Notes: generated by a model from the letters alone, not told the origin. A stretch of DNA of 64,000 nt from Desulfobulbaceae bacterium (GCA_034007705.1 JAVEQK010000016.1:5893-69892), one strand, 5' to 3'; shown: positions 11,277 through 52,683, counted from the first letter of the stretch. Made by a program: numbers and translations.

Positions 11277-11353
11277 TGGCGCGCCCGGAGGGATTCGAAC
11301 CCCCGGCCCTCGGATTCGAAGTCCGATGCTCTATCCGGCTGAGCTACGGGCGC
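11277..11353 (-). tRNA. tRNA-Arg (anticodon UCG), CCA encoded
   Basis: The reverse complement folds as a cloverleaf: acceptor GCGCCCG/CGGGCGC, D arm GCTC-AGCCGGATA-GAGC, anticodon arm TCGGA-CTTCGAA-TCCGA, T arm GGGGG-TTCGAAT-CCCTC, then G-CCA. Confidence 0.9.
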
Positions 11354-22559: not shown

Positions 22560-22962
22560 AATGCACTTTCTTCAAATAGGTATTGCGCCGCCATGAGGTG
22601 CGGCAATGAACCACAATGTCGCCGATGCAGTCGGCTTTTCTTTTCCTGTCACAATGTGGGAGGATACAAACGGAGAACAAACCATGCCGGTTTGAACAGA
22701 CCGACATACAGTTAACCATGGATAACCCACCGCGTCAATACCTGCAGCTCCGTGGAATGGCCGTACGACGACGGGCCAAATTGGAAATGCCCGAGGATTC
22801 AGAGCATGTGCCAGGAGGGGAAACAGTGCTCTGAACCGCCCACCCCTGCCGCCGTTTCCGCAGTTTCCCCGCGCCGCGTGATTCATTTCCCGCTACGGCA
22901 GCGGCGAGCGGCTTTTCTTTGCTGTCCGGGCTTGACCCGGCCGCGCAGTCAGCCAGCTTCTT

Positions 22963-22978
22963 GTTACCAAACGGTAAC
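22963..22978. promoter_or_regulatory. Perfect palindrome GTTACC-AAAC-GGTAAC (putative enhancer/UAS site 1)
   Basis: Read directly. It lies about 100 bp upstream of the sigma-54 promoter at 23062. Confidence 0.55.
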
Positions 22979-22993
22979 GTCCGGGGCCGGATT

Positions 22994-23009
22994 GTTCCCA
23001 TCAGGTAAC
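22994..23009. promoter_or_regulatory. Palindrome variant GTTCCC-ATCA-GGTAAC (putative UAS site 2)
   Basis: 11/12 half-site positions match site 1. It is offset 31 bp from site 1. Confidence 0.45.
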
Positions 23010-23061
23010 ACCCGCTGTTCTTCAACAGGGCTAATATCTTGTTTTCACAAACATTGCATAC

Positions 23062-23077
23062 TGGCACATGTCTTGCT
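23062..23077 (+). promoter_or_regulatory. Sigma-54 (-24/-12) promoter TGGCAC-ATGTC-TTGCT
   Basis: Exact match to the TGGCAC-N5-TTGCW consensus with correct GG/GC spacing. It faces the kinase operon. Confidence 0.7.
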
Positions 23078-23168
23078 TCGGCAGGATTGGCGACCCCATG
23101 GACGGCTCCCCGCAGGAAGGGGACGGATCGGTTCACCCCCCTGTCCCTGCCGGAAACCATACCGATTC

Positions 23169-23184
23169 GTTACCATACGGTAGC
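23169..23184. promoter_or_regulatory. Palindrome variant GTTACC-ATAC-GGTAGC (site 3), abutting a sigma-70-like promoter
   Basis: 11/12 half-site match. It ends 8 bp before the -35 element at 23192. Confidence 0.45.
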
Positions 23185-23191
23185 AAAAAAA

Positions 23192-23220
23192 TTGTTTCCC
23201 GGGAAAATCGAGGATATAAT
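23192..23220 (+). promoter_or_regulatory. Sigma-70-like promoter TTGTTT-N17-TATAAT
   Basis: Perfect -10 hexamer, 17-nt spacer and a weak -35. It lies about 95 bp upstream of the kinase start. Confidence 0.45.
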
Positions 23221-23314
23221 AGGAAAACGGCAGTTGAGCGTGAACCCTGTGCTTCGCGCCGCCGCTCCACGGCGCGAATGCCGAATTGCCCTGGCGAGGC
23301 GGTGAGAATACCCC

Positions 23315-24898
23315 GTGAATCTGACCATCAAGTTCATTGTTGCCATCAGCGCCGTCATCCTGCTGTCCTACGGTTTTCTGCTGTACCAGACCTCGCATCT
23401 GCAGAATGAACTGGTCATGGAACAGGCCCGGCAGCAGACCCGCATCCTCTATAAACAGATCATTCTGACCCGCCAGTGGATATCCGACCACCAGGGATTG
23501 TTCCTGATCAAGACCGAAAAGGTGCTGGAAAACCCCTACCTGCACGAGGCCTCCATTAAAGCCGATGACGGGACCATTTTCGTCAAGCGCAACCCCGCCA
23601 TGGTGACCAGGGAACTGTCCGAATATGCGGCCCGGACAGGATTCTGCTGGTTTCGCATCATCAGTCTGAAACCGGTCAATCCCGCCAACACCCCGGATGA
23701 TTTCGAGCGGGCGGCCATGCTGCGCTTTGAGCAGGGGGTCCGGGAAGTCGATGCCGTCACCAACGGACCGGCCGGGAGGGTTCAACGTTATATCGCCCCG
23801 CTCATCGTCCAGGAGTCCTGTCTCGGATGCCATGCCGAACACGGCTATTCCTTAGGCGACATCCGCGGCGCCCTGAGCATCAGCGTTCCCCTGTCCTGGG
23901 CCGACAGTGTAATCCGGAAAAACAACACCACCATTTTCAAATATGCCTTTTTCTCTGTTTTCGCGGTCGCCCTGGCCCTCATCTATCTGTTCAACAAACT
24001 GGTGGCCCGGCGGATCGACCGGCTGTCCCAGGCCATGGAGAAGTATCCCGAGCAGGGATACAACGTCGCCGACGACAAGCACCTGTACAAGGACGAAATC
24101 GGCCGGCTGATCAAGGGGTTCGGTGATCTCTGCGAACGGCTTGAACGGGCCCAGACCGAACTGGACAAAACGATGCAGCAGGCGTTCTATAACGAAAAAA
24201 TGGCCTCCCTGGGGCAACTGACCGCCGGCATCGCCCATGAAATCAACAATCCGCTCGGAGGGCTGCTCAACTGCGTCAAGACCATGCGGGAGGAGCCCGA
24301 CAACCTGGAACTGCACATGCGCTATCTGCCCCTGCTGGAAAAGGGACTCCGCCGCATCGAGCATATCATGCGCCAGCTCCTGAACTTCGGCAGAAAAGCA
24401 CCGTTGAACATGAGCAAGGTCGATATTGACGACATCGTCCGGGAATGCTGTGAACTGCTCGAATACCGGCTGAAAAACATCTCCCTGTCCCTGGACCTGC
24501 AGCTCCGGGAGCTCTATTGCATCGATGTGGAAGCCCTGCGCCAGATTATCGTCAACACCACCCTCAATGCAATCCAGGCCATGCCCGACGGCGGCAGCCT
24601 GACCGTCGCCACCGGGCGGCGGGGCATCCAGATCTTCATAGAGGTACGCGACACCGGGACGGGCATCGATCCGGCCCTCATGGACAAAATTTTCGATCCC
24701 TTCTTCACCACCAAGGAAGTGGGGGAGGGAACCGGCCTGGGACTGGCGGTCACCTATTCGCTCGTCAAGCAGATGCAAGGCAACATCGCGGTGGAGAGCG
24801 AACCGGGCAGAGGTTCGCTGTTCACGATCACGCTGCCGGCCACCCAGGACTGCGTCATTCTCCCGCACCGGTCCGAACCGGAACCAGACAAGGAATAA
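23315..24898 (+). CDS. Sensor histidine kinase with a periplasmic Tll0287-like (DUF3365) domain carrying a single CXXCH haem-c motif, plus HAMP, HisKA and HATPase domains
   Basis: GTG start. TM1 is IVAISAVILLSYGFLL. The periplasmic domain ends with QESCLGCHAEHGYSLGDIRGALSISVP, followed by TM2. H-box AHEINNPLGG. N, G1 and G2 boxes (DTGTGI, GTGLGLAV). Confidence 0.85.
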   Translation: MNLTIKFIVAISAVILLSYGFLLYQTSHLQNELVMEQARQQTRILYKQIILTRQWISDHQGLFLIKTEKVLENPYLHEASIKADDGTIFVKRNPAMVTRELSEYAARTGFCWFRIISLKPVNPANTPDDFERAAMLRFEQGVREVDAVTNGPAGRVQRYIAPLIVQESCLGCHAEHGYSLGDIRGALSISVPLSWADSVIRKNNTTIFKYAFFSVFAVALALIYLFNKLVARRIDRLSQAMEKYPEQGYNVADDKHLYKDEIGRLIKGFGDLCERLERAQTELDKTMQQAFYNEKMASLGQLTAGIAHEINNPLGGLLNCVKTMREEPDNLELHMRYLPLLEKGLRRIEHIMRQLLNFGRKAPLNMSKVDIDDIVRECCELLEYRLKNISLSLDLQLRELYCIDVEALRQIIVNTTLNAIQAMPDGGSLTVATGRRGIQIFIEVRDTGTGIDPALMDKIFDPFFTTKEVGEGTGLGLAVTYSLVKQMQGNIAVESEPGRGSLFTITLPATQDCVILPHRSEPEPDKE

Positions 24899-24901
24899 CT
24901 C

Positions 24902-26245
24902 ATGGCAAGAATACTGCTTGTTGAAGACGACGATATAATGAGGATTACCATCCAGGACCGGCTGGAAAGGCACGAACTGGATGTCGACGCGGTCGAGAAC
25001 GGCCTGAGGGCGATCGACCGCCTGAAAAAGAACAACTACCATCTGGTCATTTCCGATATCCGCATGCCGGGGATCAGCGGTCTGGAACTGCTGGAGACCG
25101 TCCGCCAGGAGGCCCCCTATACGGACATCATCATGATGACCGCCTACGGCAGCGTCGACGACGCGATCGGGTGCATGACCAAAGGGGCTGCCGACTACAT
25201 CCTCAAACCCTTCAACATGGACGACCTCATCATCCGGGTCAGCAGAATCCTGGAAATGCAGACGATGAAAGCCCGCTTTTCATCCCTGCAGGAGAGCTGC
25301 CGCGAGATGCAGAAGGACATGATCGGCGACAGCCGGGCCATGCAGATGGTCCACGACCTCATCAACCAGGTGGCGCCGACCGATTCCACCATCCTCATCA
25401 CGGGCGAATCGGGAACAGGCAAGGAGCTGGCGGCGGCCGGCATTCACAGGAAAAGCAGAAGGGCCGACAAGCCGTTTGTCCGCATCAACTGCGCCGCCAT
25501 CCCCGAAGGGTTGATGGAATCGGAACTGTTCGGCCACGAAAAAGGGGCCTTTACCGGGGCGCACGCCCGCAAACCCGGCAAATTCGAACTGGCTGACGGC
25601 GGCACCATGCTGCTGGATGAAATCGGCGAACTGCCGCTGCCCCTGCAGGCGAAGCTTCTCAGGGTCCTCCAGGAAAGTTCGTATGAACGGGTCGGCGGCA
25701 CCGGCACGGTCCGCGTCGATGTCCGCATCCTCTGCGCCACCGCCAAGAACCTGGAAGAGGAAGTGCGGCGGGGAAATTTCCGCCAGGACCTGTATTACCG
25801 GCTCAACGTCATTCCCCTTGTCATGCCGCCGCTGCGGGACCGGAAAGAGGACATCCCGGCCCTGACCAACCATTTTCTGCATGAATTCAGCATCAAGCGC
25901 GGGATTGCCCTGGGAATACGCCAGGACGCCATGCAGCTCCTGATCGACTACGCCTATCCCGGCAATGTCCGGGAACTGCGCAATATCATTGAACGGGCCT
26001 CGGTCCTGGCCCCGGAGGCGGTCATTACCGTCAAAGACCTGCCTGCCGATCTGTCTCCTGCCGGAAAATTCGAGGCACCGGAAACCCACTGCACCCTTGC
26101 CGAGGCCCTTGCCCGGGCTGAAAAAGAGCTGGTGCTGAAAGCGCTGGCCAGGGTGCAGGGCCGAAGAGCCGAAGCAGCCGATCTGCTCGGCATCAGCAGA
26201 AAAAACCTGTGGGAAAAAATGAAGCTGCACGGCATTGCGCTCTGA
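24902..26245 (+). CDS. Sigma-54-dependent response regulator (NtrC family enhancer-binding protein)
   Basis: Receiver domain (DIRMPGISG), AAA+ Walker A GESGTGKE, ESELFGHEKGAFTGA (GAFTGA loop) and a C-terminal Fis-type HTH (AADLLGISRKNLWEKMK). Confidence 0.9.
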   Translation: MARILLVEDDDIMRITIQDRLERHELDVDAVENGLRAIDRLKKNNYHLVISDIRMPGISGLELLETVRQEAPYTDIIMMTAYGSVDDAIGCMTKGAADYILKPFNMDDLIIRVSRILEMQTMKARFSSLQESCREMQKDMIGDSRAMQMVHDLINQVAPTDSTILITGESGTGKELAAAGIHRKSRRADKPFVRINCAAIPEGLMESELFGHEKGAFTGAHARKPGKFELADGGTMLLDEIGELPLPLQAKLLRVLQESSYERVGGTGTVRVDVRILCATAKNLEEEVRRGNFRQDLYYRLNVIPLVMPPLRDRKEDIPALTNHFLHEFSIKRGIALGIRQDAMQLLIDYAYPGNVRELRNIIERASVLAPEAVITVKDLPADLSPAGKFEAPETHCTLAEALARAEKELVLKALARVQGRRAEAADLLGISRKNLWEKMKLHGIAL

Positions 26246-26294
26246 GGCCGCTGCCGGGCATTTATTTTCCAACTTTACATGGGGAGGAGAAATC

Positions 26295-27593
26295 ATGCGC
26301 ATGAAATTGATGGTCCTGGGAATGGCCGCGGCAATCCTCGGGTTTGCCGGCACGGCTGCGGCAGCCGATCCCTGCGTTGACTGCCACAACACGATTTCAC
26401 CCGGTCAGGTCCGGGACTGGCAGGTCAGCAAACATTCCGAAAATGATGTGACCTGCTCCACCTGTCACGGCGACCTCCACACAAAGGCGGAAGACGCCAT
26501 GCTGGCGGAGCTGCCCGATGAAAAAGTGTGTGCCGGATGCCATGAAGAACAGTTCAATCAGTTTGGCCGCGGCAAACACAACTTCGGCTGGACATCCCTG
26601 AATGCGATTCCGGCAACCCACTTCGCCCCTGATGAGCTCATCGAGGGCGGCAGGGGGTGCGGCGGGTGCCATAACATGGGCATCAAGACCGAAGAACAGA
26701 AAAAGGAGCTCCGCGACAAGGGGTACCGCTACCAGAGCAACTCGTGCGACGAGTGCCACACCCGGCACGCCTTTTCCAAGAAAGAAGCCCTGAATCCCAG
26801 GGCCTGCCAGCAGTGCCACATGGGCTACGACCATCCGCAGTGGGAAATGTGGTCCAGCTCCAAGCACGGGGCCCGGTATTACATCCGGAAGGAAGGGGAC
26901 CTGCCGGCTGAGGCGGCCGGCCCGAGCTGCCAGAACTGCCATATGCCGGACGGCGATCATGAAAACCGGACGGCCTGGGGCTTTCTCGGCGTACGGCTGC
27001 CCCTGCCCGAGGACAAGCAGGCCGCGGACGACCGGGTGACCATTCTCAAGGCCCTCGGGGTCCTGAATCCCGAGACCGGCGAGCCCACCCCGATCCTCGA
27101 TGCGGTCAAGGCCGTGGACATGGTCCGGCTGGATCAGGAATCCTGGGAAAAGGAACGAAGCAAGATGATCAAGACCTGCACCGGCTGCCACTCGGAAAAA
27201 TACGCCCGCGAGCAGCTGGCCATGGGCGACGCCATCCTGCAGAAGTCCGACCGGCTGATGGCCGACGCCATTGAAACCGTCGCCGCCCTCTACCGGGAGG
27301 GCATCATTGCAAAACCGGAAGGATACCCCTTCAACTATCCGTTCCTGCTGGCCTTCATGCACACCAACGGCGCCAACTGGAATGAAAAGCTGGACGACCT
27401 GTCCTTTATCGACCAGGTCCTGGTGCAGATGTACATGAAGCACCGTATGCGCGCCTACCAGGCCTTTTTCCACGTCAATCCGGATTACGCCTACTGGTAC
27501 GGCTGGAATGAAATGACCAAGGATCTCGGAGAAATCAAGGAGCTGGCGAGGACCATGCGGGCGACGCACGCACCGCAGGATAAACCCCAATAA
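26295..27593 (+). CDS. Octahaem c-type cytochrome, hydroxylamine oxidoreductase (HAO) family, exported (paralogue 1)
   Basis: Eight CXXCH motifs (CVDCH, CSTCH, CAGCH, CGGCH, CDECH, CQQCH, CQNCH, CTGCH). HAO-type core CHTRHAFS...CQQCHMGYDHPQWEMWSSSKHG and C-terminal NPDYAYWYGW. Sec signal MRMKLMVLGMAAAILGFAGTAAAA. RBS GGAGGAG. The track ORF starts upstream at 26235. Confidence 0.85.
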   Translation: MRMKLMVLGMAAAILGFAGTAAAADPCVDCHNTISPGQVRDWQVSKHSENDVTCSTCHGDLHTKAEDAMLAELPDEKVCAGCHEEQFNQFGRGKHNFGWTSLNAIPATHFAPDELIEGGRGCGGCHNMGIKTEEQKKELRDKGYRYQSNSCDECHTRHAFSKKEALNPRACQQCHMGYDHPQWEMWSSSKHGARYYIRKEGDLPAEAAGPSCQNCHMPDGDHENRTAWGFLGVRLPLPEDKQAADDRVTILKALGVLNPETGEPTPILDAVKAVDMVRLDQESWEKERSKMIKTCTGCHSEKYAREQLAMGDAILQKSDRLMADAIETVAALYREGIIAKPEGYPFNYPFLLAFMHTNGANWNEKLDDLSFIDQVLVQMYMKHRMRAYQAFFHVNPDYAYWYGWNEMTKDLGEIKELARTMRATHAPQDKPQ

Positions 27594-27659
27594 AGAACAG
27601 GCCTGGAAACCGGGCGGGTTCGGCCGGCGATCATTCTGACCGACTCACCTGCCCTGCAA

Positions 27660-27685
27660 GGGGACCCATTGCGGGTCCCCTTTTT
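27660..27685 (+). terminator. Intrinsic terminator after the octahaem gene
   Basis: GGGGACCC-ATTGC-GGGTCCCC followed by TTTTT. Confidence 0.75.
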
Positions 27686-27792
27686 CGTTGCCTCCGCACC
27701 GCCTCACTTTCCTGATTCCGCAACGGCGGCACGAATCATCATACCCCCTCCGAATCCGGTTCCGCCTGCCGGACGAATCGGACAGCCACCGG

Positions 27793-41005: not shown

Positions 41006-41021
41006 GATACCGTACGGTAAC
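41006..41021. promoter_or_regulatory. Palindrome GATACC-GTAC-GGTAAC (same family as 22963; putative UAS)
   Basis: 11/12 half-site match to GTTACC/GGTAAC. It lies about 190 bp upstream of the nap sigma-54 promoter. Confidence 0.45.
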
Positions 41022-41038
41022 AAACCCCCGGCAATTAT

Positions 41039-41054
41039 ATTACCCATCCGTAAC
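41039..41054. promoter_or_regulatory. Palindrome variant ATTACC-CATC-CGTAAC (putative UAS)
   Basis: 10/12 half-site match. It is offset 33 bp from the previous site. Confidence 0.35.
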
Positions 41055-41193: not shown

Positions 41194-41209
41194 TGGCACT
41201 GTTGTTGCT
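41194..41209 (+). promoter_or_regulatory. Sigma-54 (-24/-12) promoter TGGCAC-TGTTG-TTGCT upstream of napF
   Basis: Exact match to TGGCAC-N5-TTGCW, about 80 bp before the napF ATG. Confidence 0.7.
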
Positions 41210-41287
41210 ATACAATAGAACAAAGCTGATCAAACCGATTCACCGAACGGCCGGCAAGTGACCCGGCCCTTCACAGGACGCACCCCG

Positions 41288-41827
41288 ATGAATCTCACTT
41301 CGTACCTGGCCAACAAATGTCTGGCCTTCCTGCTGGACAGCGGCCCCGGCCGTTCCCGGCCGAGGCCGCTGCAGCCCATGCGACCCCCCTGGTCGGCGAA
41401 AAGCGCGGACTTCGCTTCGCTCTGCGACGGCTGCGGCCTGTGCATCATTGCCTGTCCGGAAAAAATCCTGGCCGGAGACGACAAGGGGCGCCCCCGGGTC
41501 GACTTTGCCGCCGGCTCGTGCACCTTCTGCGGCGCCTGCGCCCAAAGCTGCCACACAGGGGCGCTCTCGCCCGAACCGGCAGCCGCACCGTGGGCTGTGA
41601 AGGCCTTCGTTTCGCCCGGCTGCCTGGCCCGCAACAATGTCCTCTGCAGGACCTGCGCCGAGCACTGCAGTGGAGGCGCGATCATTTTTGCCAACACAAC
41701 AACCGCGGTCCCCGCCCCGGTAATCCTGTCCGGCAGATGCACCGGCTGCGGCGCCTGTTTCGCACCCTGCCCGGCCGGGGCCATCGTCATGCGGCCGGGG
41801 ACGCAACCAACTGAGGTGAGCGGATGA
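41288..41827 (+). CDS. napF: Ferredoxin-type protein NapF (4Fe-4S clusters)
   Basis: Cys clusters CDGCGLCIIACP, CTFCGACAQSC, CRTCAEHC and CTGCGACFAPCP. The start is uncertain: ATG 41288, or GTG 41258 as in the track. Confidence 0.75.
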   Translation: MNLTSYLANKCLAFLLDSGPGRSRPRPLQPMRPPWSAKSADFASLCDGCGLCIIACPEKILAGDDKGRPRVDFAAGSCTFCGACAQSCHTGALSPEPAAAPWAVKAFVSPGCLARNNVLCRTCAEHCSGGAIIFANTTTAVPAPVILSGRCTGCGACFAPCPAGAIVMRPGTQPTEVSG

Positions 41828-42054
41828 ACATATCCGGCATCGTTGTCCACGCCCGGCCCGGCGATTCAGCCGGCCTGGCCGATACATTGCAGCGGATGCC
41901 CGGCGTTGATGTGCACACGGTCACCGATGACGGCCGGATCGTCATCACCGTGGAAGATACGCCGGAAAACGAACCGCCCGAAACCCTGATGAACGTCCAG
42001 AATCTGCCCGGCGTGCTGAGCGCCGCCATGGTCTACAACTACTGCGACGAGTGA
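41824..42054 (+). CDS. napD: NapD chaperone
   Basis: 76 aa. [13 protein letters not shown]... is typical of NapD. ATGA overlap with napF, directly upstream of napA. Confidence 0.8.
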
Positions 42055-42085: not shown

Positions 42086-44581
42086 ATGAAACTGAACAGG
42101 CGCGAGTTTATCAAGGCCAATGCCGCCGCAGCCGCCGCCGCGGTCGTCGGCGCCCACCTTCCGGCCGCCCAGGCATACGCAAAGGGACAGGACTCAATCC
42201 GCTGGGACAAGGCCCCCTGCCGCTTCTGCGGCGTCGGCTGCAGCGTCCTGGTCGGCACCAGGGACGGCCGGGTGGTCGCCACCCAGGGCGACCCGGATGC
42301 TCCGGTGAACAGGGGCCTGAACTGCATCAAGGGATACTTCCTGGCCAAGATCATGTACGGCAAGGACCGGGTCACCACCCCCCTGCTGCGCAAAAAAGAC
42401 GGCAAGTATGACAAGAACGGGGAATTCGCCCCGGTCTCCTGGGACGAAGCCTTCACGGTCATGGCGGAGAAATACAAGGAGGCCATCCGCACCGGCGGCC
42501 CCACCACCGTCGGCATGTTCGGCTCCGGCCAGTGGACCGTGTGGGAAGGGTATGCGGCCGCCAAACTGTACAAGGCCGGATTCCGCTCCAACAATATCGA
42601 TCCCAACGCCCGGCACTGCATGGCCTCCGCCGTGGCGGCCTTCATGCGGACCTTCGGCATCGACGAGCCCATGGGCTGCTACGACGACCTCGAGCATGCC
42701 GACGCCTTTGTCCTGTGGGGCGCCAACATGGCCGAAGCCCACCCCATCCTCTGGTCGCGCCTGACCAACCGCCGCCTGACGGCAAACCATGTCAAGGTGG
42801 CCGTGCTCTCCACCTTCACCAACCGCTGTTTCGAACTCGCCGACCTGGGCATGATCTTCAAGCCCCACACCGACCTGGTCCTCCTCAACTACATTGCCAA
42901 TCACATCATCCAGGCGGGCAAGGTCAACGAGGAGTTCGTCAGGCAGCACGTCAACTTCCGCATCGGCAACACCGACATCGGCTACGGCCTGCGCCCCGAC
43001 AATCCGCTGGAAGTCCAGGCCAAGAACGCCAAGACGCCCGACGACCAGGGCGGTTCCCGCGAAGCCGCCTTTGAGGAGTACGCCCGGTTCGTTTCCGAAT
43101 ACACCCTGGACAAGGCCCATGAAATGTCCGGCGTCCCCAAAAAGGACCTGGAAGCCCTGGCCGAAATCTACGCGGACCCGAAAACCAAGGTGGTCTCCTA
43201 CTGGACCATGGGGTTCAACCAGCACACCCGCGGCACCTGGGTCAACAACCTGGTGTACAACGTCCACCTGCTGACCGGCAAGATCTCGGAGCCGGGCAAC
43301 GGACCCTTCTCCCTGACCGGCCAGCCGTCGGCCTGCGGCACGGCCCGCGAGGTGGGCACCTTCGCCCACCGGCTGCCGGCCGACATGGTGGTCAACAACA
43401 AGGAGCACCGGGACAGGACGGAAAAAATCTGGCAGGTGCCCGAAGGGACCATCCCGGACAAGCCGGGCTACCATGCCGTGCTGCAGAACCGGATGCTGAA
43501 GGACGGCAAGCTCAACGTCTACTGGGTCATGTGCAACAACAACATGCAGGCCGGACCCAATGTCAACGGGGAAATGTATCCCGGCTACCGGAATCCGAAA
43601 AACTTCATCATCGTCTCCGACCCTTATCCGACGGTCACCGCCATGGCCGCCGACCTCATCCTGCCGACGGCGATGTGGGTGGAAAAGGAAGGCGCCTACG
43701 GCAACGCCGAGCGCCGTACCCAGTTCTTCCGCCAGCAGATCAAGGCCCCGGGTGAGTCGCGGAGCGATCTCTGGCAGCTGGTGGAATTCTCCAAATACTT
43801 CAAGACGGACGAGGTCTGGCCGGCGGAGCTGCTCGACAGCAACCCCGCCTACAGGGGCAAGACCCTCTTTGACGTGCTCTTTGCCAACGACCGGATCAAC
43901 AAATTCCCGTTGACCGACCTGCAGAAGGGCTACGACAACGATGAATCGACCCATTTCGGCTTCTACCTGCAGAAAGGCATCTACGAGGAATATGCCTCGT
44001 TCGGCCGCGGCAAGGCCCATGACCTTGCCCCCTTTGACATGTACCACCAGTCCCGCGGCCTGCGCTGGCCCATCGTGGACGGCAAGGAAACCCTGTGGCG
44101 GTTCCGGGAAGGATACGACCCCTACGTCAAGCAGGGGGAAGGGATCCGCTTCTACGGTAAACCGGACGGCCGGGCCGTCATTTTCGCGCTGCCCTACGAG
44201 CCGCCGGCCGAATCGCCGGACCGGGAATACGACCTGTGGCTGTGCACCGGCCGGATACTGGAGCACTGGCACTCCGGCTCCATGACCACGAGGGTGCCGG
44301 AGTTGTACCGGGCCGTGCCCGATGCAGTGGTCTTCATGCATCCCGATGACGCGAAAAAGCGGGGCCTGCAGCGCGGCCAGATGGCCAGAATCGCCTCCCG
44401 CCGCGGCGAGATAACCTGCCCGGTGGAAACCATGGGCCGCAACAAAATGCCGGAGGGCATGGTGTTCATCCCCTTCTTTGACGCGGGCCGTCTGGTCAAC
44501 AAGCTGACCCTTGACGCCACCTGCCCGATCTCCAAGGAAACGGACTTCAAAAAATGCGCGGTCAGGGTCAGCAAGGCATGA
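42086..44581 (+). CDS. napA: Periplasmic nitrate reductase catalytic subunit NapA (Mo-bisMGD, 4Fe-4S)
   Basis: Tat signal NRREFIK. 4Fe-4S motif [12 protein letters not shown]...C, and NapA-typical length and motifs throughout. Confidence 0.95.
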
Positions 44582-44624: not shown

Positions 44625-45398
44625 GTGAACGGACAACACAATACCAGCGGCGGCGGCCAACCAAAGGAACCGGCCCGGCGGCGGTTTCTCGCCGAAACCC
44701 TGAGCGCCGCCGCCGGCGCCCTGGTGCTGGCGGCAAGCCTCGGGCTGTACCAGCGATCCGCCGGGGCCCTGCCGGCTTACGCCTGCCGGCCGCCGGGGGC
44801 TCTGCCCGAGAAGCAGTTCCTCGGCGCCTGTCTGCGCTGCGGCCAGTGCGTCCGCGGCTGCCCCTATGATGTCCTGCACCTGGCCGCACCGGGGGGGGAA
44901 ATCCCCACCGGCACCCCCTATTTCGTTGCCCGGGAAAACCCCTGCCGGATGTGCGAGGACATCCCCTGCCTGAAAGCCTGCCCGTCCGGCGCCCTGAACA
45001 GGAGCCTGGCGACGGTTTACGAGTCAAGGATGGGACTGGCTGTCCTCCTGGATCACGAAAACTGCCTCAACCATCTCGGACTGCGCTGCGATGTCTGCTA
45101 CCGTGCCTGCCCGCTCATTGACCAGGCCATCACCCTCGAGGTCCAGGTCAACCGGCGCAGCGGCGTCCACACCCTGTTCATCCCCACGGTCCATTCCGAC
45201 CACTGCACCGGCTGCGGCATGTGCGAACACGCCTGCGTGCTGGACAACGCAGCCATCAAGGTGCTGCCCCTCAGCCAGGCCCGGGGCGAACTGGGCAAGC
45301 ACTACCGTCTCGGCTGGGAGGAACAGGAAAAGGCCGGCGGCTCCCTTATCCCCGAACAGTTGAAACTTCCTGTCCGGCGGCCGGAGGAACTGCCATGA
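44625..45398 (+). CDS. napG: NapG ferredoxin-type subunit (periplasmic, Tat signal)
   Basis: RRRFL Tat motif. Four Cys clusters ([46 protein letters not shown]). GTG start. Confidence 0.85.
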
Positions 45399-46237
45399 CG
45401 GCCCGCATACCCGGCAGGGAGGCAATCCGGAAGAAAGGCATGGTGCGGGCCGCCAAGTGGCTGGCGCTCCGGCGCATATCGCAGCTGGCCATTCTCCTGC
45501 TGTTCCTGCTCGGGCCGTTGGCCGGCGTCTGGATCGTCAGGGGCAGCTTCTCCGCCAGCATGACCCTTGATGTTCTGCCCCTCACCGATCCGCTGACCGC
45601 CCTGCAGTCCCTGCTGGCCGGCCATACCCTCGGCGCCACCGCCCTGATCGGCGCTCTGATTGTCGCGGTCTTCTACCTGCTCGTCGGCGGGCGGGCCTAC
45701 TGCAGCTGGGCCTGTCCGGTCAACCTGGTGACCGACGCCGCCGCCTGGCTGGGCCGGCGTCTGGATCTGAAAAAAAGCATCGGCTTCAACAATACGGTCC
45801 GCTACTGGCTGCTCGGCTTCATTCTGCTGCTGGCACCCCTGACCGGCGCCGTTGTCTGGGAATGGGTCAACCCGGTGACCATCCTGCAGCGCGGCCTGCT
45901 GTTCGGCATCGGCCTGGGCTGGGCAGTGGTGGCGGCCATCTTCCTCTTTGACCTGCTGGTCGTCCGCCGCGGCTGGTGCGGACACCTGTGCCCGGTCGGC
46001 GCCCTCTACAGCCTGCCGGGGTTCCTGTCTCTCCTGCGGGTCAGGGCCGCCCGCCGCGAGCAGTGCACGGACTGCATGGACTGCTACAGCGTCTGTCCCG
46101 AACCGCAGGTCATCCGCCCGGCCCTCAAGGGAGAGGCCAGCGGCTCCCCGGTCATATTATCCGGCAACTGCACAAACTGCGGGCGATGCATCGACATCTG
46201 CCCCGAGAATGTCTTTCAATTTTCGCAACGATTCTAA
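45395..46237 (+). CDS. napH: NapH membrane quinol-dehydrogenase subunit
   Basis: 4 TM helices, CSWACP and CGHLCP motifs, and two C-terminal 4Fe-4S motifs ([24 protein letters not shown]). ATGA overlap with napG. Confidence 0.85.
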
Positions 46238-46249
46238 GGAGGGAACGGT

Positions 46250-46672
46250 ATGAAGAAAATAGTATGGGCTCTCTTTCTGCTGCTCTGTGCCGCCAGCTTT
46301 GCCGCCGCCGCTTGGGCTTCAACGGATACAGCCGCCAAGGGAAAAGCGGAACTGCCCTCCGGGACAGCGCCGGCTGCGGGGCTGGACTGGAAGGACGAAC
46401 AATCGGCCATTCCCAGGACCTTTGTCCATCAGCCGCCCCTGATCCCCCATGCGATTCATGAATACGAGACAACGACCTCGCGCAACGACTGCCTCGATTG
46501 TCATCGAACCGGTGATGACGCCCAGGCTGCTCCGCCCCACGAAAGCCATTACCTGGACCGGGACGGGAAAGCCGGGGAAACGGTCGCGGCCCAGTGGTAT
46601 TTCTGCACCCAGTGCCATGTGGGACAGGTCGACGCCAAGCCGCTGATCGAGAACACATTTCAGGGCAAATAA
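46250..46672 (+). CDS. napB: NapB dihaem cytochrome c
   Basis: Signal peptide, two CXXCH motifs (CLDCH, CTQCH) and NapB-like PPLIPH. Confidence 0.85.
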   Translation: MKKIVWALFLLLCAASFAAAAWASTDTAAKGKAELPSGTAPAAGLDWKDEQSAIPRTFVHQPPLIPHAIHEYETTTSRNDCLDCHRTGDDAQAAPPHESHYLDRDGKAGETVAAQWYFCTQCHVGQVDAKPLIENTFQGK

Positions 46673-49118: not shown

Positions 49119-50081
49119 TCAGGCAAAAACATCCTCCAGGGCCTCATGGGGCTCGGGATAGGGGCTCTCTTCCGCAAAGCGGATGGCCTCCCGAACCGTC
49201 TCACCGATTTCGCTCTCCATTGCCTGCAGTTCGTCCGCGCTGATGAGCCCCTCGGCGAGCATATCGCCGCGCAGTTTCGGGATGGGACACATGGCCTGCC
49301 ATCGCTCGATCTCTTCCCTGGGCTGGTAGAGCTGCAGGTCGCTTTCGCCATGGCCCCGCCAGCGATAGGTCTTGTATTCAATGAGCGTCGGCCCCTTGCC
49401 GGCCAGGGCGCGCTCCCTGGCGTCCACTGCCGACATGTACACCGCCAGGGCGTCATTGCCGTCCACCACCACCCCCGGCATGGCGTAGCCGGCCGCCCGG
49501 TCGGCGATGTTCTCCGCCCTGGTATGCTGTTCATAGCTCTGGGCCCCGGCGTACAGATTGTTTTCGCACACAAAGATCACCGGCAGTTCCCAGACGCTTG
49601 CAAGATTCAAGGCCTCGTGAAAGGAGCCCTCGTTGGCCGCGCCGTCCCCGATAAAACAGACGGTGACGCATTTCTCCCCCCGGTACTGCTGGGCAAAGGC
49701 CCTGCCCACGGCAATGGGCGGCCCCCCTCCGACCACGGTCGTCGTGCACGGGGCGTTGATCTCAGGCACCGCCAGATGCAGCGTGCCGCTTTTGCCTTTA
49801 TTGCAGCCGGTCCGCTTGCCGAAGATTTCCGCCATCAGCGCTTTCGGGTCCGCCCCCTTGGCCAGCAGGTGTGCGTGGCTGCGGTGATTGGTGAAGATCA
49901 CGTCCTCCGGCTGCAGGGCGGCGCACACTCCCGCGCCCACCGCCTCCTGTCCTGTGCACAGGATCATCATGCCGTGGATCTTGCCCTCGATTTTGCACAG
50001 TTCCGTCAGCGCTTCCTCGAACCTGCGGGACAGCAGCAGCGCCCGGAGCATTTCCAGCTTCTTTTCCCTGGATATCTGCAT
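49119..50081 (-). CDS. 2-oxoacid dehydrogenase E1 component, alpha subunit (TPP-binding)
   Basis: TPP motif FIGDGAANEGSFHEALNLASVWELPVIFVCENN. Confidence 0.85.
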   Translation of the reverse strand: MQISREKKLEMLRALLLSRRFEEALTELCKIEGKIHGMMILCTGQEAVGAGVCAALQPEDVIFTNHRSHAHLLAKGADPKALMAEIFGKRTGCNKGKSGTLHLAVPEINAPCTTTVVGGGPPIAVGRAFAQQYRGEKCVTVCFIGDGAANEGSFHEALNLASVWELPVIFVCENNLYAGAQSYEQHTRAENIADRAAGYAMPGVVVDGNDALAVYMSAVDARERALAGKGPTLIEYKTYRWRGHGESDLQLYQPREEIERWQAMCPIPKLRGDMLAEGLISADELQAMESEIGETVREAIRFAEESPYPEPHEALEDVFA

Positions 50082-50391
50082 CGGTCCTCCTTTTTGCCGG
50101 CAACGGACTTTTCAACAATGCCGCCGGGATGTCCGACCAGCTTCCTGGCGGAACACCCTGCTCATAATTCCTATTTTACGGTTTATTGACCTTTCTCCAA
50201 CATGTTTTTTTCAATTATCCTGTTTTTGTCGCGCATCCCCTCCAGTCCCGCGCCGTCGACCTTCCGGCGGGCCGATGATGCCGGAAAAGCATGATCCCCT
50301 GAAAACTGCGGATCGTCACCGGCGGGAAATCAAGTGACTTTTTCCATGGCATTGCGCCGCGGGGCAAAACGATAAAACCGGTAAAAGGAAC

Positions 50392-50421
50392 TTGTTTTTT
50401 TGCGGAAAAATAAAATATAAT
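50392..50421 (+). promoter_or_regulatory. Sigma-70-like promoter TTGTTT-N18-TATAAT in an AT-rich intergenic region
   Basis: Perfect -10 hexamer, about 95 bp upstream of the tetrahaem gene. The -35 is weak. Confidence 0.35.
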
Positions 50422-50515
50422 TTTTACATGAAATAATAATTTCGGATGCGGCCTGTCGAGTACTGAAAAATCCAATTTTACCCCATCCCAAATCAAAACA
50501 ATGCAGGGAGGGCCT

Positions 50516-51073
50516 ATGAAAAAAGTGCTTACTCCTCTTGTCTGGGTAGTGGTGGGTATTGTCGCGGGGTTTCCGCTCTTCAGCCTCACCTATTACACCA
50601 TGGTCCGCACATCCACCCCTCTCTTCTGCGCAACATGTCATGAAATCCAGCCTGCTTACGATGCCTGGAAAACCTCGTCCCATGTGAATAACGGACAGGG
50701 CTTTGTGGCTGACTGCATGGACTGTCATCTGCCGCCGCCGCACGAGACCTTCAATTTTTTTTATGCCAAGACTCTGCACGGTCTCAAGGATATTTACGTT
50801 CATTTTCGGCAAGGGGCGGAGGCCTACGACAGGAGTGTCAACCGGGAGAAAGCCTATGCGTCGATGCACAATTCCCAGTGCCAGAAATGCCACCGCAACA
50901 TTCTTTACATGCCCTACAATCGGGGAGCCATGCTGGCCCACCGGACAGTTATGTACCCGCGGCCCGGCTACGAGAAAAAATGTGTTGACTGCCACCGTAA
51001 TCTGGTCCACGTGGACCGGCCGGCTTACAACTACAGGAAAGACTACGGTTCATACCGGGCGACACGAATATGA
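50516..51073 (+). CDS. NapC/NirT/NrfH-family membrane-anchored tetrahaem cytochrome c (quinol dehydrogenase)
   Basis: N-terminal TM helix plus four CXXCH motifs (CATCH, CMDCH, CQKCH, CVDCH). RBS GGGAGG. The track ORF begins 15 nt upstream. Confidence 0.85.
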   Translation: MKKVLTPLVWVVVGIVAGFPLFSLTYYTMVRTSTPLFCATCHEIQPAYDAWKTSSHVNNGQGFVADCMDCHLPPPHETFNFFYAKTLHGLKDIYVHFRQGAEAYDRSVNREKAYASMHNSQCQKCHRNILYMPYNRGAMLAHRTVMYPRPGYEKKCVDCHRNLVHVDRPAYNYRKDYGSYRATRI

Positions 51074-51130
51074 ATACGGTTAACGGAAGCTCAATTTTGT
51101 CATAAATTGAACTGATGGGGGGAGCAAATT

Positions 51131-52519
51131 ATGAAAAAATCCGGATTTCCATTCTTTCTTTTGAGCGTGATTCCCCTGGCAATATGCTGCGTTGCGGCAG
51201 CACACGCGCAGAATTACCCCAAGGCGAAGGAGTTCAGAATAGAGCGGAGTCTGGCGCCCCAGGCAATAGCATGCCTTGAATGCCACAAGCAGCAGAACCC
51301 GGGCCTGTTTGCGGACTGGTCGCACAGCCGTCATGCCTCAGCCGGCATCACCTGCCTGGACTGCCATCAGGCCGAAGAGCATGATCCGGACGTCAGCGTC
51401 GAACACTACACGCAGTACCAGCGCACCGACTCTCCCTACGGAACCCAGGAATATAAAATTCCGGTTTCCGCCGTGGTGACGCCCAAGGACTGCTCCCGCT
51501 GCCATCCCGATGAGGTCACCCAGTACAGCCGCAGCAAGCATGCCAATACCATGGAAATCATGTGGAAGATCGATCCCTGGCTCAACAATGGCATGAACTC
51601 CGATATCGAGAGGAAAACAGGGTGCTACCACTGCCACGGAACCGTCCTGAAGACCAAGGACGGCAAGCTTGACCCCATGACCTGGCCCAATGTCGGGGTC
51701 GGCCGGGTGAATATGGATGGCAGCCTCGGCAGCTGCACCAGCTGCCATACACGGCACCGCTTCTCCGTCATGGAAGCCAGAAAGCCGGAAGCCTGCGGTC
51801 AATGCCATCTTGGGCCGGACCATCCGCAGATTGAAATCTACATGGAATCCAAGCACGGCGACATCTATACGGCCTTCGGCGATGAGTACAACTGGAACTC
51901 GGCGCCGGGGACCTGGACGCCGGGGGTCGATTTCCGGGGACCGACCTGCGCCTCGTGCCATATGTCGGGGGCCGGTACGGTTCTGACTTCCCACGATGTC
52001 ACCGAGCGGCTTTCCTGGGAGACACAGGCGCCCCTCACTGTCAGGCCTTCCGATTTCGCGGCCTTCCCGGCCAAAACCGATTGGGAGGTGGAACGCGGCA
52101 AAATGAAGGAAATCTGTCTCCAGTGCCACGGCAACGCCTGGGTCGAGGACTTTTATGTGAACTTCGACCAGGCGGTGGAAAATTACAACGAGATATACTT
52201 CAAGCCGGCAAAAGCAATGCTGGACAGCCTTTACGAGAAAGGACTGCTGGACAAGAGCAGGTTCTTCGATGAAGACCTGGAAGTGGAATACTATGAATTA
52301 TGGCATCATGAAGGCCGCCGCGCGCGGATGGGCGTCATGATGATGGCGCCCGATTATGCCTGGTGGCACGGGTTCTACGAATGCAAAAAGCGCTTCAATA
52401 CCTTCATGAAGGAAGCCGAGCACCTGCTGGCCACCGGTGAAAAGGCGCATAGATATGAAGATTACCCCGGAGCGACGGGCGTTACCACGAAACCGGAGGA
52501 AATATTCGGCAATAAATGA
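51131..52519 (+). CDS. Octahaem c-type cytochrome, HAO family, exported (paralogue 2)
   Basis: Eight CXXCH motifs (CLECH, CLDCH, CSRCH, CYHCH, CTSCH, CGQCH, CASCH, CLQCH). Core CHTRHRFS...CGQCHLGPDHPQIEIYMESKHG and C-terminal APDYAWWHGF. Sec signal. Confidence 0.9.
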   Translation: MKKSGFPFFLLSVIPLAICCVAAAHAQNYPKAKEFRIERSLAPQAIACLECHKQQNPGLFADWSHSRHASAGITCLDCHQAEEHDPDVSVEHYTQYQRTDSPYGTQEYKIPVSAVVTPKDCSRCHPDEVTQYSRSKHANTMEIMWKIDPWLNNGMNSDIERKTGCYHCHGTVLKTKDGKLDPMTWPNVGVGRVNMDGSLGSCTSCHTRHRFSVMEARKPEACGQCHLGPDHPQIEIYMESKHGDIYTAFGDEYNWNSAPGTWTPGVDFRGPTCASCHMSGAGTVLTSHDVTERLSWETQAPLTVRPSDFAAFPAKTDWEVERGKMKEICLQCHGNAWVEDFYVNFDQAVENYNEIYFKPAKAMLDSLYEKGLLDKSRFFDEDLEVEYYELWHHEGRRARMGVMMMAPDYAWWHGFYECKKRFNTFMKEAEHLLATGEKAHRYEDYPGATGVTTKPEEIFGNK

Positions 52520-52555
52520 GGCTGCGAATTCCTCCGGGATAAACCTGTTCACAGT

Positions 52556-52589
52556 ACGGAAGGGGACGGAATAAACCGTCCCCTTCCGT
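52556..52589 (+). terminator. Strong hairpin after octahaem 2 (terminator-like)
   Basis: Perfect 14-bp stem ACGGAAGGGGACGG / CCGTCCCCTTCCGT with loop AATAAA. The downstream tract is T-poor (ATCTTCTCC). Confidence 0.55.
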
Positions 52590-52683
52590 ATCTTCTCCTG
52601 TGCGTTGCGGCTTGCGATAAAGGGGTGGACCCTGGAAACCGACCAACATCGGTCCGCCTGCCTTCAGGCTGGGATAGGCATTG

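Follow-up and report, generated by a model that had tools for sequence, protein, structure and literature searches.

Why should an octahaem cytochrome of the hydroxylamine oxidoreductase (HAO) family be encoded together with a signalling pair? The question is raised by a stretch of 64,000 nucleotides from a Desulfobulbaceae bacterium (GCA_034007705.1, JAVEQK010000016.1:5893-69892; the whole stretch is called the window here), in which a sensor histidine kinase (gene 1), an NtrC-type response regulator and sigma-54 enhancer-binding protein (gene 2), and a Sec-exported HAO-family octahaem cytochrome c (gene 3) follow one another on the plus strand. A first-pass annotation had read the three as one operon and as a unit, in which a haem-c kinase governs an epsilon-Hao-like enzyme reducing nitrite, hydroxylamine, or NO, or is served by an accessory that makes or removes its ligand. 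After comparing the locus with its relatives, we favour with moderate confidence a reading in which genes 1 and 2 form a switch for nitrate and nitrite ammonification and gene 3 is an accessory enzyme rather than the main nitrite reductase. The earlier idea that the two-component pair governs an enzyme of HAO type stands in outline; the triad was overstated as a unit, and the proposed enzyme class is disfavoured.

Several predictions support a single operon. The gaps between the genes are 3 bp (genes 1 and 2) and 49 bp (genes 2 and 3), scans of the two junctions for promoters and terminators found none, and the sole terminator-like plus-strand site 3' of the genes, a 10-bp stem with a T run (27658 to 27682), lies after gene 3. 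RNA folding compared with shuffled sequences gave z scores of −0.59 and −0.31 at the junctions and −2.75 at the operon 3' end. A promoter specific to gene 3 was also considered and rejected: positions 26100 to 26300 hold no sigma-54 match with three or fewer mismatches and no plus-strand match to the sigma-70 consensus. The proposed single transcript is thereby upheld as a prediction and, with the predicted promoters and activator sites upstream of gene 1, would link octahaem expression to the kinase-activator pair. The statement that no hairpin separates the genes is correct for terminator-grade or shuffle-significant folds; a weak hairpin below terminator criteria (26230 to 26275; z = −0.59) does span the activator stop codon, with AUUUAUUUU a few bases further on, and could attenuate read-through into gene 3. 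An Rfam scan gave no match in the 755-bp upstream intergenic region or near the operon.

Two tandem promoters are predicted before gene 1 (Table 1). The first, P1, lies 238 bp 5' of the kinase start and has two 16-bp palindromes, spaced 31 bp, at 68 to 99 bp upstream. Perfect TGGCAC-N5-TTGCT elements occur twice in the window, at 23062 (P1) and at 41194 before napF, which by count alone is not above chance; they gain significance because each has an adjacent palindrome pair (155 to 188 bp upstream in the case of nap). The palindrome, GTTACC-N4-GGTAAC, has six matches in the window against 0.7 expected, a number reached in 0 of 100 shuffles; the sixth is a weak copy at 22711. P1 is kept in the related loci L001, L085, L111, and L081. 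Downstream of P1, a single palindrome (23169) precedes a sigma-70-like promoter, P2. Because its TTGTTT agrees with the consensus at 3 of 6 −35 positions, P2 was missed by the sigma-70 scan and was found by reading and by alignment of upstream regions: the pattern TTGTnT-17/18-(G)ATATAAT is common to the window, L001/L085, L081, L084, L086, and L087, and the placement of promoter and site before the kinase gene is kept in relatives. Since P1 and P2 lie upstream and no signal lies between genes 2 and 3, we infer an operon with one inducible (sigma-54) and one basal promoter, gene 3 depending on both. The layout resembles that of E. coli glnA-ntrBC, where a sigma-54 promoter with tandem activator sites and a sigma-70 promoter with an activator site likewise drive regulator genes, although signal and regulon differ.

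The two regulatory proteins have the domains expected of such a pair. Gene 1 matches PF11845 (Tll0287-like, DUF3365) with 80.0 bits (Pfam cut-off, 24.1) over residues 34 to 192, corresponding to positions 4 to 144 of the 144 in the profile, and also contains HisKA and HATPase_c. Hydropathy analysis (Kyte-Doolittle value > 1.6; windows starting at residues 1 to 8 and 205 to 214) placed transmembrane segments at about residues 1 to 26 and 205 to 232, on either side of the PF11845 domain, which is therefore predicted to be extracytoplasmic (periplasmic). A single CXXCH motif occupies residues 169 to 173, and its C169, C172, and H173 do not vary among 15 orthologues (52 to 84% identity), in support of the haem-c sensor loop first proposed. 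His59, Met96, and His176 are invariant in the same orthologues and are candidate distal haem ligands; Tll0287 itself uses Cys/His ligation, whereas the gene 1 family has no invariant second Cys. Gene 2 was correctly recognised as an intact NtrC-type activator: it carries Response_reg (PF00072), Sigma54_activat (PF00158; 241 bits), AAA_lid_14 (PF25601), and HTH_8 (PF02954), with GAFTGA at residue 215, and cognate promoters are predicted in the window.

What the pair might regulate was read from its neighbours in related genomes. The kinase survey took in eight annotated contexts and 80 metagenome loci (88 in total; tblastn), and orthologues of at least 74% identity are called close. Kinase orthologues are common in Desulfobulbaceae, many being 73 to 87% identical and all carrying PF11845; one, in a metagenome-assembled genome of this family (P0121), is 100% identical to gene 1. 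The activator directly follows the kinase (orthologues of 49 to 87% identity) in every related locus long enough to show it. Around the pair lie nrfHA, nap, moaA, an NrfD-linked module with a 528-residue HAO, or HAO-type octahaems. Among close orthologues the usual order is nrfH-nrfA-kinase-activator and then moaA or nap (more than 15 loci, several of which continue into nap). In a second arrangement, genes for a tetrahaem cytochrome, an iron-sulfur (FeS) protein, NrfD, the 528-residue HAO, and a 202-residue protein precede the kinase and activator, which are followed by a gene 3 orthologue or moaA. In the third, found in the window, L085/L111/L001, and L081, the sigma-54 promoter leads to the kinase without intervening genes. 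The position after the activator could be read in about 19 close loci and holds a gene 3 orthologue in 5 (76 to 100% identity), moaA in 7, nap in 3, a different HAO in 1 (L081; 42% identical to a second HAO of the window, paralogue 2, and with its own sigma-54 promoter), and nothing recognised in 3. More distant kinase orthologues (49 to 62%) adjoin, in divergent orientation, nap-like, nrfHA, or NrfD-HAO clusters.

The palindrome follows the kinase. With one mismatch or none, it occurs 159 times in 0.79 Mb of kinase-centred loci and, across the 88 loci, is enriched about 90-fold; the control loci, centred on the octahaem (1.15 Mb), hold 6 copies, which is background, and 3 of these 6 lie in L001, the sole control locus that bears the kinase. 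Wherever the sequence upstream of a close orthologue is available, a single palindrome is found 93 to 175 bp 5' of the kinase; distant orthologues mostly have one or two within about 360 bp upstream. Pairs, with copies 31 to 34 bp apart, lie 66 to 99 bp 5' of the sigma-54 promoters of nrfH, nap, and NrfD-HAO modules, and the geometry before nrfH in more than 10 loci (−99/−66) equals that before the kinase in the window. Strong comparative evidence thus points to GTTACC-N4-GGTAAC as the predicted site of the gene 2 activator and to nitrate ammonification genes as the probable targets of the pair. In the window, napFDAGHB, encoding a periplasmic nitrate reductase, would be the second member of this regulon.

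Three side observations were made on these loci. In many relatives (L087, L089, L090, L094, L095, L099, and L101), moaA (molybdenum cofactor synthesis) lies directly 3' of the activator, which fits co-regulation with the molybdoenzyme Nap; in L087, moaC/moaB are annotated too. In L081, an identical 16-mer sigma-54 element, TGGCATATCTTTTGCT, stands before the kinase (6758) and before the different HAO gene (9972) and looks like a duplicated promoter. The NrfD-HAO operon of L082 (1835 to 6866) and L087 (1850 to 6889), with a palindrome pair and a sigma-54 promoter upstream, encodes the tetrahaem cytochrome, FeS protein, NrfD, 528-residue HAO (His at the cross-link position discussed below), and a conserved exported protein of 202 to 206 residues that has no Pfam match; it may specify a quinol-linked HAO-type nitrite reductase complex.

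Among characterised systems, NrfS-NrfR of Desulfovibrio vulgaris and D. desulfuricans comes closest: this sigma-54 two-component system is induced by nitrite and activates nrfHA, and sites for it have been predicted at nap as well (PMC5701242, PMC4641369, PMC6456213). Because the pair studied here adjoins nrfHA, nap, moaA, or HAO genes and its palindrome is enriched, we consider it an NrfS/NrfR-like regulator of nitrate ammonification. Both systems join a kinase to an NtrC-type activator with GAFTGA and are found next to nrfHA (here, in the relatives); both have sigma-54 promoters with 16-bp 6-4-6 palindromes before nitrite or nitrate reductase operons, and each is proposed to keep the reduction of nitrate in step with that of nitrite (PMC5701242, PMC6456213, PMC4641369). 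The likeness is one of proposed function and gene context, not of a sequence comparison with DVU0621/DVU0622. The sites differ, GTTACC-N4-GGTAAC here as opposed to the LurR-like GTCCGC-N4-..AGAC of NrfR, for example GTCCGCTTTTTCAGAC (PMC6456213), and the pair in the window has an HAO-family octahaem in its own predicted transcript, lacks nrfHA, and is linked there to nap only. On the sensor side, sCache_haem (DUF3365) domains fused to signalling modules bind NO but not O2 in vitro, and CXXCH is conserved in 99% of the family (PMC12889525). Gene 1 shares PF11845, the conserved CXXCH, the extracytoplasmic location, and a signalling output with the NO-binding domain of P. azotoformans and with GSU0582/GSU0935 (PMC12889525); these studied members have no assigned regulon, whereas here output and target genes can be read, as predictions, from the DNA. 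No paper linking DUF3365 with nrf was found in the literature searched. The first-pass statement that no characterised example exists holds for the exact triad, but not for its parts, given NrfS-NrfR (PMC5701242, PMC6456213) and the NO-binding haem-c Cache sensors (PMC12889525).

Gene 3 was rightly assigned to the exported HAO-family octahaems. Its product has a hydrophobic, signal-peptide-like N terminus ending AAA/AD, eight CXXCH and zero CXXCK motifs, and a match to PF13447. Profile searches found HAO-family proteins only among its closest solved structures (6t5e, 6h5l, 4n4j, 4fas, and 6hif; E = 1e-25 to 1e-29), the matches spanning residues of about 24 to 226 and 284 to 423. A TaNiR/ONR-type (CXXCK) nitrite reductase as in Desulfurivibrio (PMC12142623) was considered and rejected, as gene 3 has no CXXCK and its match to 8rv0 is marginal. 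Asp179-His180 aligns with Asp267-His268 of Nitrosomonas europaea HAO (NeHAO), and all 80 orthologues retain both residues. Residues 122 to 155 (26658 to 26759) place 24 residues between the haem-4 and haem-5 motifs (CGGCH...CDECH), compared with 5 in the Nitrosomonas enzyme; this insert, beside the catalytic haem, is longer still in paralogue 2 and in the 528-residue HAO.

Whether the cross-linking Tyr of NeHAO is absent from gene 3 was a question put by the first-pass annotation, and the answer is that it is present. Tyr400 aligns with NeHAO Tyr467 by HMMER and MAFFT alike, the C-terminal FHVNP-DYAYWYGWN of gene 3 lying opposite NeHAO AHVNPGGWTYTEGWG, and Tyr400 and the loop DYAYWYG are identical in 77 of 77 readable orthologues. 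MAFFT places the Tyr of KsHOX in the same column, which holds Trp in paralogue 2, the L081 HAO, and Kustc0458 and His in the 528-residue HAO. In the 50%-identity cluster representatives nearest gene 3 the residue is mostly His and in a minority Tyr, which fits a 2025 HAO phylogeny with an ancestral "reductive" His and a separate His-to-Tyr change within Desulfobacterota (PMC12758564). By sequence, gene 3 has the Tyr that marks the oxidative (P460, Tyr cross-linked) subgroup and departs from epsilon-Hao in two defining features, having this Tyr and having no adjacent NapC/NrfH-type gene.

Comparison with characterised enzymes places gene 3 between two groups. With the oxidative HAO/HOX enzymes (NeHAO and Kuenenia kustc1061) it shares the eight-haem core, the Asp-His distal pair, and the C-terminal helical domain, and as in NeHAO its Tyr stands three residues before a conserved Gly-Trp (Y-T-E-G-W in NeHAO, Y-W-Y-G-W in gene 3). 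Unlike them, at about 20 to 30% identity, it has 432 rather than 500 to 570 residues, lies in an anaerobic Desulfobulbaceae bacterium with no evident ammonia or hydrazine metabolism, and has a Tyr whose cross-link to haem is putative. The reductive HAOs (epsilon-Hao with HaoB, Kustc0458/HAOr, and the cable-bacterium pMHC) are, like gene 3, periplasmic HAO-family octahaems often found near nap, and are used by nitrate-ammonifying or nitrite-reducing anaerobes (PMC8042395; bioRxiv 10.1101/2020.02.22.960823). They differ from it in having no Tyr and in their partners, epsilon-Hao standing beside a NapC/NrfH-type gene and Kustc0458 being paired with the dihaem Kustc0457; the NapC-type and paralogue 2 module at 50501 to 52519 fits this class better than gene 3 does.

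Seen from the octahaem, the linkage to the pair is rare. In a survey of 403 relatives, one genome per species, the best 80 of 403 were kept (74 to 96% identity); they belong to Desulfobulbales, Desulfuromonadales, Zixibacteria, and Acidobacteriota. The family is highly conserved, with 73 to 85% identity among the top 120 database matches and a mean column identity of 75% in a 16-sequence alignment, and identity of about 75% across these four groups, which include different phyla, suggests horizontal spread. Kinase and activator lie upstream in 1 of the 80 loci, that of a near-relative whose octahaem is 96% identical (L001; tblastn). An upstream sigma-54 promoter was sought in the orthologues and gave 1 weak match in 79, and all-against-all clustering of flanking open reading frames (ORFs) found no family in more than 10 of the 80 loci. 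The first-pass annotation had staked the triad on synteny of octahaem and two-component genes in related genomes. Because the triad occurs in 1 of 80 octahaem genomes and, seen from the kinase, in about 5 of the roughly 19 close loci that could be read past the activator, it is a lineage-specific cassette and not a conserved unit.

A few contexts do connect gene 3 orthologues with nitrogen metabolism. In Desulfoprunum benzoelyticum DSM 28570 (L003, 8188 to 14488), one of two orthologues (89%) lies between ytfE/scdA and hcp (prismane), with a flavodiiron-like gene beside hcp, a typical nitrosative-stress set; an hcp or flavodiiron gene is found within 8 kb of the octahaem in three further loci. 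In L034, L044, and L074 (Desulfuromonadales), NapC-type and paralogue 2 orthologues lie directly 3' of the gene 3 orthologue. Separate reductase modules thus accompany nitrogen-linked gene 3 orthologues as NapC plus paralogue 2 (the window and L034/L044/L074), nrfHA (L086), or the NrfD-linked HAO (L082 and L110). Together, the ytfE-hcp and reductase-module contexts make it more likely that gene 3 is an accessory enzyme with a reactive intermediate as its substrate than that it is the primary nitrite reductase. An observation apart concerns a Desulfocapsa clade (L020, L026, L028, L030, L039, and L049), where the genes next downstream of the gene 3 orthologue, in the same orientation, encode a small GIY-YIG protein, an unrelated sigma-54 activator (41 to 44% identity), and a multi-transmembrane histidine kinase with PAS; this is a second, independent association of the octahaem with a sigma-54 two-component system.

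The interval before the kinase bears on what gene 3 might have replaced. Positions 22930 to 23320 (about 350 bp) were compared with L084 and L089: the first half aligns with the nrfH-upstream segments of relatives (site pair and sigma-54 promoter) and the second half with their nrfA-to-kinase spacers (single site and sigma-70 promoter). No nrfHA was found between P1 and the kinase or anywhere in the window. On the simplest reading, nrfHA was lost from, or never inserted in, this sub-lineage, and what was a nitrite reductase promoter would now drive the regulator genes and gene 3.

The sequence of events that we propose is as follows. The kinase would display a covalent c-type haem in its Cache-like periplasmic domain, bind a nitrogen oxide, most probably NO or nitrite, and phosphorylate the activator. 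The activator would then bind the GTTACC-N4-GGTAAC palindromes and open sigma-54 promoters, of which the window offers two targets, its own operon (P1) and napFDAGHB (promoter at 41194). P2, with one activator site by its −35 box, would supply basal, autoregulated expression, the sign of this autoregulation being an assumption of the model. Read through from both promoters, gene 3 would have a basal expression that accompanies the sensor, and this would rise whenever nitrate reductase is induced. Its enzyme would clear a reactive intermediate (hydroxylamine and/or NO) leaked in nitrite ammonification, in a direction of catalysis that we likewise assume, and it would probably exchange electrons with soluble cytochromes or with the NapC-type protein encoded at 50.5 kb. 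Gene 3 is read as an accessory because of the conserved Tyr and the separate reductase module in every nitrogen-linked context.

Several observations weigh against this assignment. About 70 of the 80 octahaem orthologues have no nitrogen-cycle neighbour within 6 kb, and the substrate may accordingly not be a nitrogen oxide at all; the regulators adjacent to them (Fur-like, TetR, and GAF kinase) are unrelated and lineage specific. The alignment of the Tyr400 loop is fixed by HVNP on one side and GW on the other, but the loop has one residue fewer than that of NeHAO, and HMMER shifts KsHOX by two columns and sets its Tyr in the column next to that of Tyr400, an ambiguity of one residue; a Tyr is present at the cross-link position, but Tyr in a sequence is by itself no proof of a haem cross-link. 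The AlphaFold2 monomer, modelled without haems from the 16-sequence alignment, scored a predicted local distance difference test value (pLDDT) of 56 and a predicted template modelling score of 0.53, with the haem core below 50 pLDDT, so that its geometry is unusable; Foldseek searches with this poor model returned HAO-family structures as all of the top five (template modelling score of about 0.3), and no residue-level use was made of it. Finally, the absence of nrfHA is equally compatible with gene 3 having taken over nitrite reduction.

This last point leads to the strongest rival, in which gene 3 is an inducible, epsilon-Hao-like respiratory reductase of nitrite (or NO or hydroxylamine) that replaced NrfA and is induced with Nap to complete the path from nitrate to ammonium. 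Gene 3 is predicted to share its transcript with the regulator and its control with nap, nrfHA is gone from the place that it occupies in most close relatives, between sigma-54 promoter and kinase, and no NrfA is encoded in the window; moreover, HAO-family proteins that are not cross-linked reduce nitrite, NO, and NH2OH (PMC8042395), and the clusters nearest gene 3 mostly have the His of the reductive type. We nevertheless think it rather unlikely. A simple epsilon-Hao-like reductase is disfavoured because gene 3 has the invariant Tyr where reductive paralogues have Trp or His. Gene 3 also lacks an adjacent quinol dehydrogenase gene, while a complete module of NapC-type protein and Trp-type HAO is available at 50.5 kb; its orthologues coexist with nrfHA (L086) or the NrfD-linked HAO (L082 and L110) and so do not behave as simple substitutes, and most of them lie outside nitrogen-respiration clusters. 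The enzyme class first proposed is weakened by the same Tyr and by the separate reductase modules.

A bolder idea takes the Tyr at face value: gene 3 would be a true P460-type HAO in a strict anaerobe, turning hydroxylamine that escapes the ammonifying nitrite reductase into periplasmic NO, the ligand of the co-transcribed kinase, so that the operon would be a self-contained device that reports the flux of hydroxylamine and nitrite and tunes Nap and the nitrite-reducing modules. We hold this to be a long shot; if true, it would be the first physiological oxidative HAO role outside nitrifiers and anammox bacteria and would give an sCache_haem kinase its first defined input and regulon. Slightly less credible still is the reading in which gene 3 shapes the signal by making the kinase ligand (NH2OH to NO, as in anammox HOX) or by removing it (NO scavenging), closing a feedback loop. 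The sensor belongs to the haem-c Cache class, which has been reported to bind NO (PMC12889525), KsHOX, with which gene 3 shares the oxidative Tyr signature, turns NH2OH into NO (PMC8042395), a sensor and its accessory would be well served by stoichiometric production from a single transcript, and HAO-type genes of two subfamilies occupy the slot after the pair; most pairs, however, have moaA, nap, or nothing recognised there in place of an octahaem (about 14 of the 19 readable close loci), and the kinase is not near most octahaem orthologues. Incidental linkage, in which a mobile stand-alone octahaem with a function outside nitrogen metabolism (e.g., sulfur-compound or peroxide chemistry) landed 3' of the pair, would explain why the pair is missing from 79 of 80 octahaem loci, the diverse neighbours (Fur-like, TetR, GAF kinase, tatC, and tyrS), and the apparent horizontal spread, but is highly improbable given that the slot holds this octahaem in at least four lineages (76 to 96% identical to gene 3) and another HAO in L081, that nitrogen-linked contexts recur elsewhere (nrfHA in L086, NapC plus paralogue 2 in L034/L044/L074, and ytfE-hcp-flavodiiron in L003), and that the catalytic Asp-His pair is invariant.

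The remaining features of the window are listed with the operon in Table 1. The NapC/NirT-type gene lies directly upstream of paralogue 2, bearing out the earlier description of the latter as standing beside a quinol dehydrogenase-type gene, and the two are likely to form the reductive nitrite/hydroxylamine module of the window. Control of this cluster by the activator was considered and rejected, as 50100 to 50520 contains no palindrome with two or fewer mismatches and no sigma-54 element; a sigma-70-like TTGTTT-18-TATAAT (about 50393 to 50422) alone is visible. The G+C content is 0.54 at 50000 to 52600, compared with 0.63 to 0.66 upstream (42 to 50 kb) and 0.52 to 0.61 downstream, and the cluster may have been acquired horizontally. 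The sole Rfam match of the window is a tRNA gene (11280 to 11353, minus strand).

Table 1. Features of the window discussed in the text, in positions counted from its first nucleotide
Feature	Position	Strand	Details
Palindrome pair, putative upstream activating sequence (UAS) for the gene 2 product	22963-23009	.	GTTACCAAACGGTAAC at 22963, GTTCCCATCAGGTAAC at 22994
Predicted sigma-54 promoter P1	23062-23077	+	TGGCACATGTCTTGCT, perfect −24/−12 element
Single palindrome, putative autoregulatory site	23169-23184	.	GTTACCATACGGTAGC, 7 bp upstream of P2 −35 box
Predicted sigma-70-like promoter P2	23192-23220	+	−35 TTGTTT 23192-23197, 17-bp spacer, −10 TATAAT 23215-23220
Gene 1, sensor histidine kinase	23315-24898	+	527 aa
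Gene 2, NtrC-type response regulator/sigma-54 enhancer-binding protein	24902-26245	+	447 aa
Gene 3, Sec-exported HAO-family octahaem cytochrome c	26295-27593	+	432 aa, counted from the ATG behind GGGGAGGAG
Predicted intrinsic terminator	27658-27690	+	GGGGACCC-loop-GGGTCCCC, then TTTTT
Second palindrome pair, putative UAS of nap operon	41006-41054	.	GATACCGTACGGTAAC at 41006, ATTACCCATCCGTAAC at 41039
Second perfect sigma-54 promoter (predicted)	41194-41209	+	TGGCACTGTTGTTGCT, 48 bp 5' of napF
napF	41258-41827	+	
napD	41824-42054	+	
napA	42086-44581	+	
napG	44625-45398	+	
napH	45221-46237 (ORF)	+	True start probably near 45395
napB	46250-46672	+	
NapC/NirT-type tetrahaem cytochrome	50501-51073	+	
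HAO-family paralogue 2	51131-52519	+	25% identical to gene 3; Trp at cross-link position

The predicted sigma-54 promoters and palindromes are new here, and two testable points reach beyond this locus: a putative regulon of the haem-c Cache kinases and the presence, among anaerobes that ammonify nitrate, of an HAO clade with the Tyr. Sensors of the haem-c Cache (DUF3365) type form a very large family; to our knowledge, NO binding has been seen in vitro only, and we know of no target genes. Because the locus and its relatives together form a circuit that can be read from sensor through sigma-54 activator and site to a predicted regulon of nap, nrfHA, moaA, and HAO-type modules, the role of the family becomes directly testable in Desulfobulbaceae, which include relatives of cable bacteria and sulfide-oxidising nitrate ammonifiers. 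At the same time, a highly conserved HAO clade of anaerobes (about 75% identity across phyla) bears the Tyr by which oxidative HAOs are commonly recognised. Should the cross-link form, this Tyr could no longer be taken to point to the oxidases of nitrifiers and anammox bacteria alone, and nitrate ammonification would come to include the recycling of hydroxylamine.

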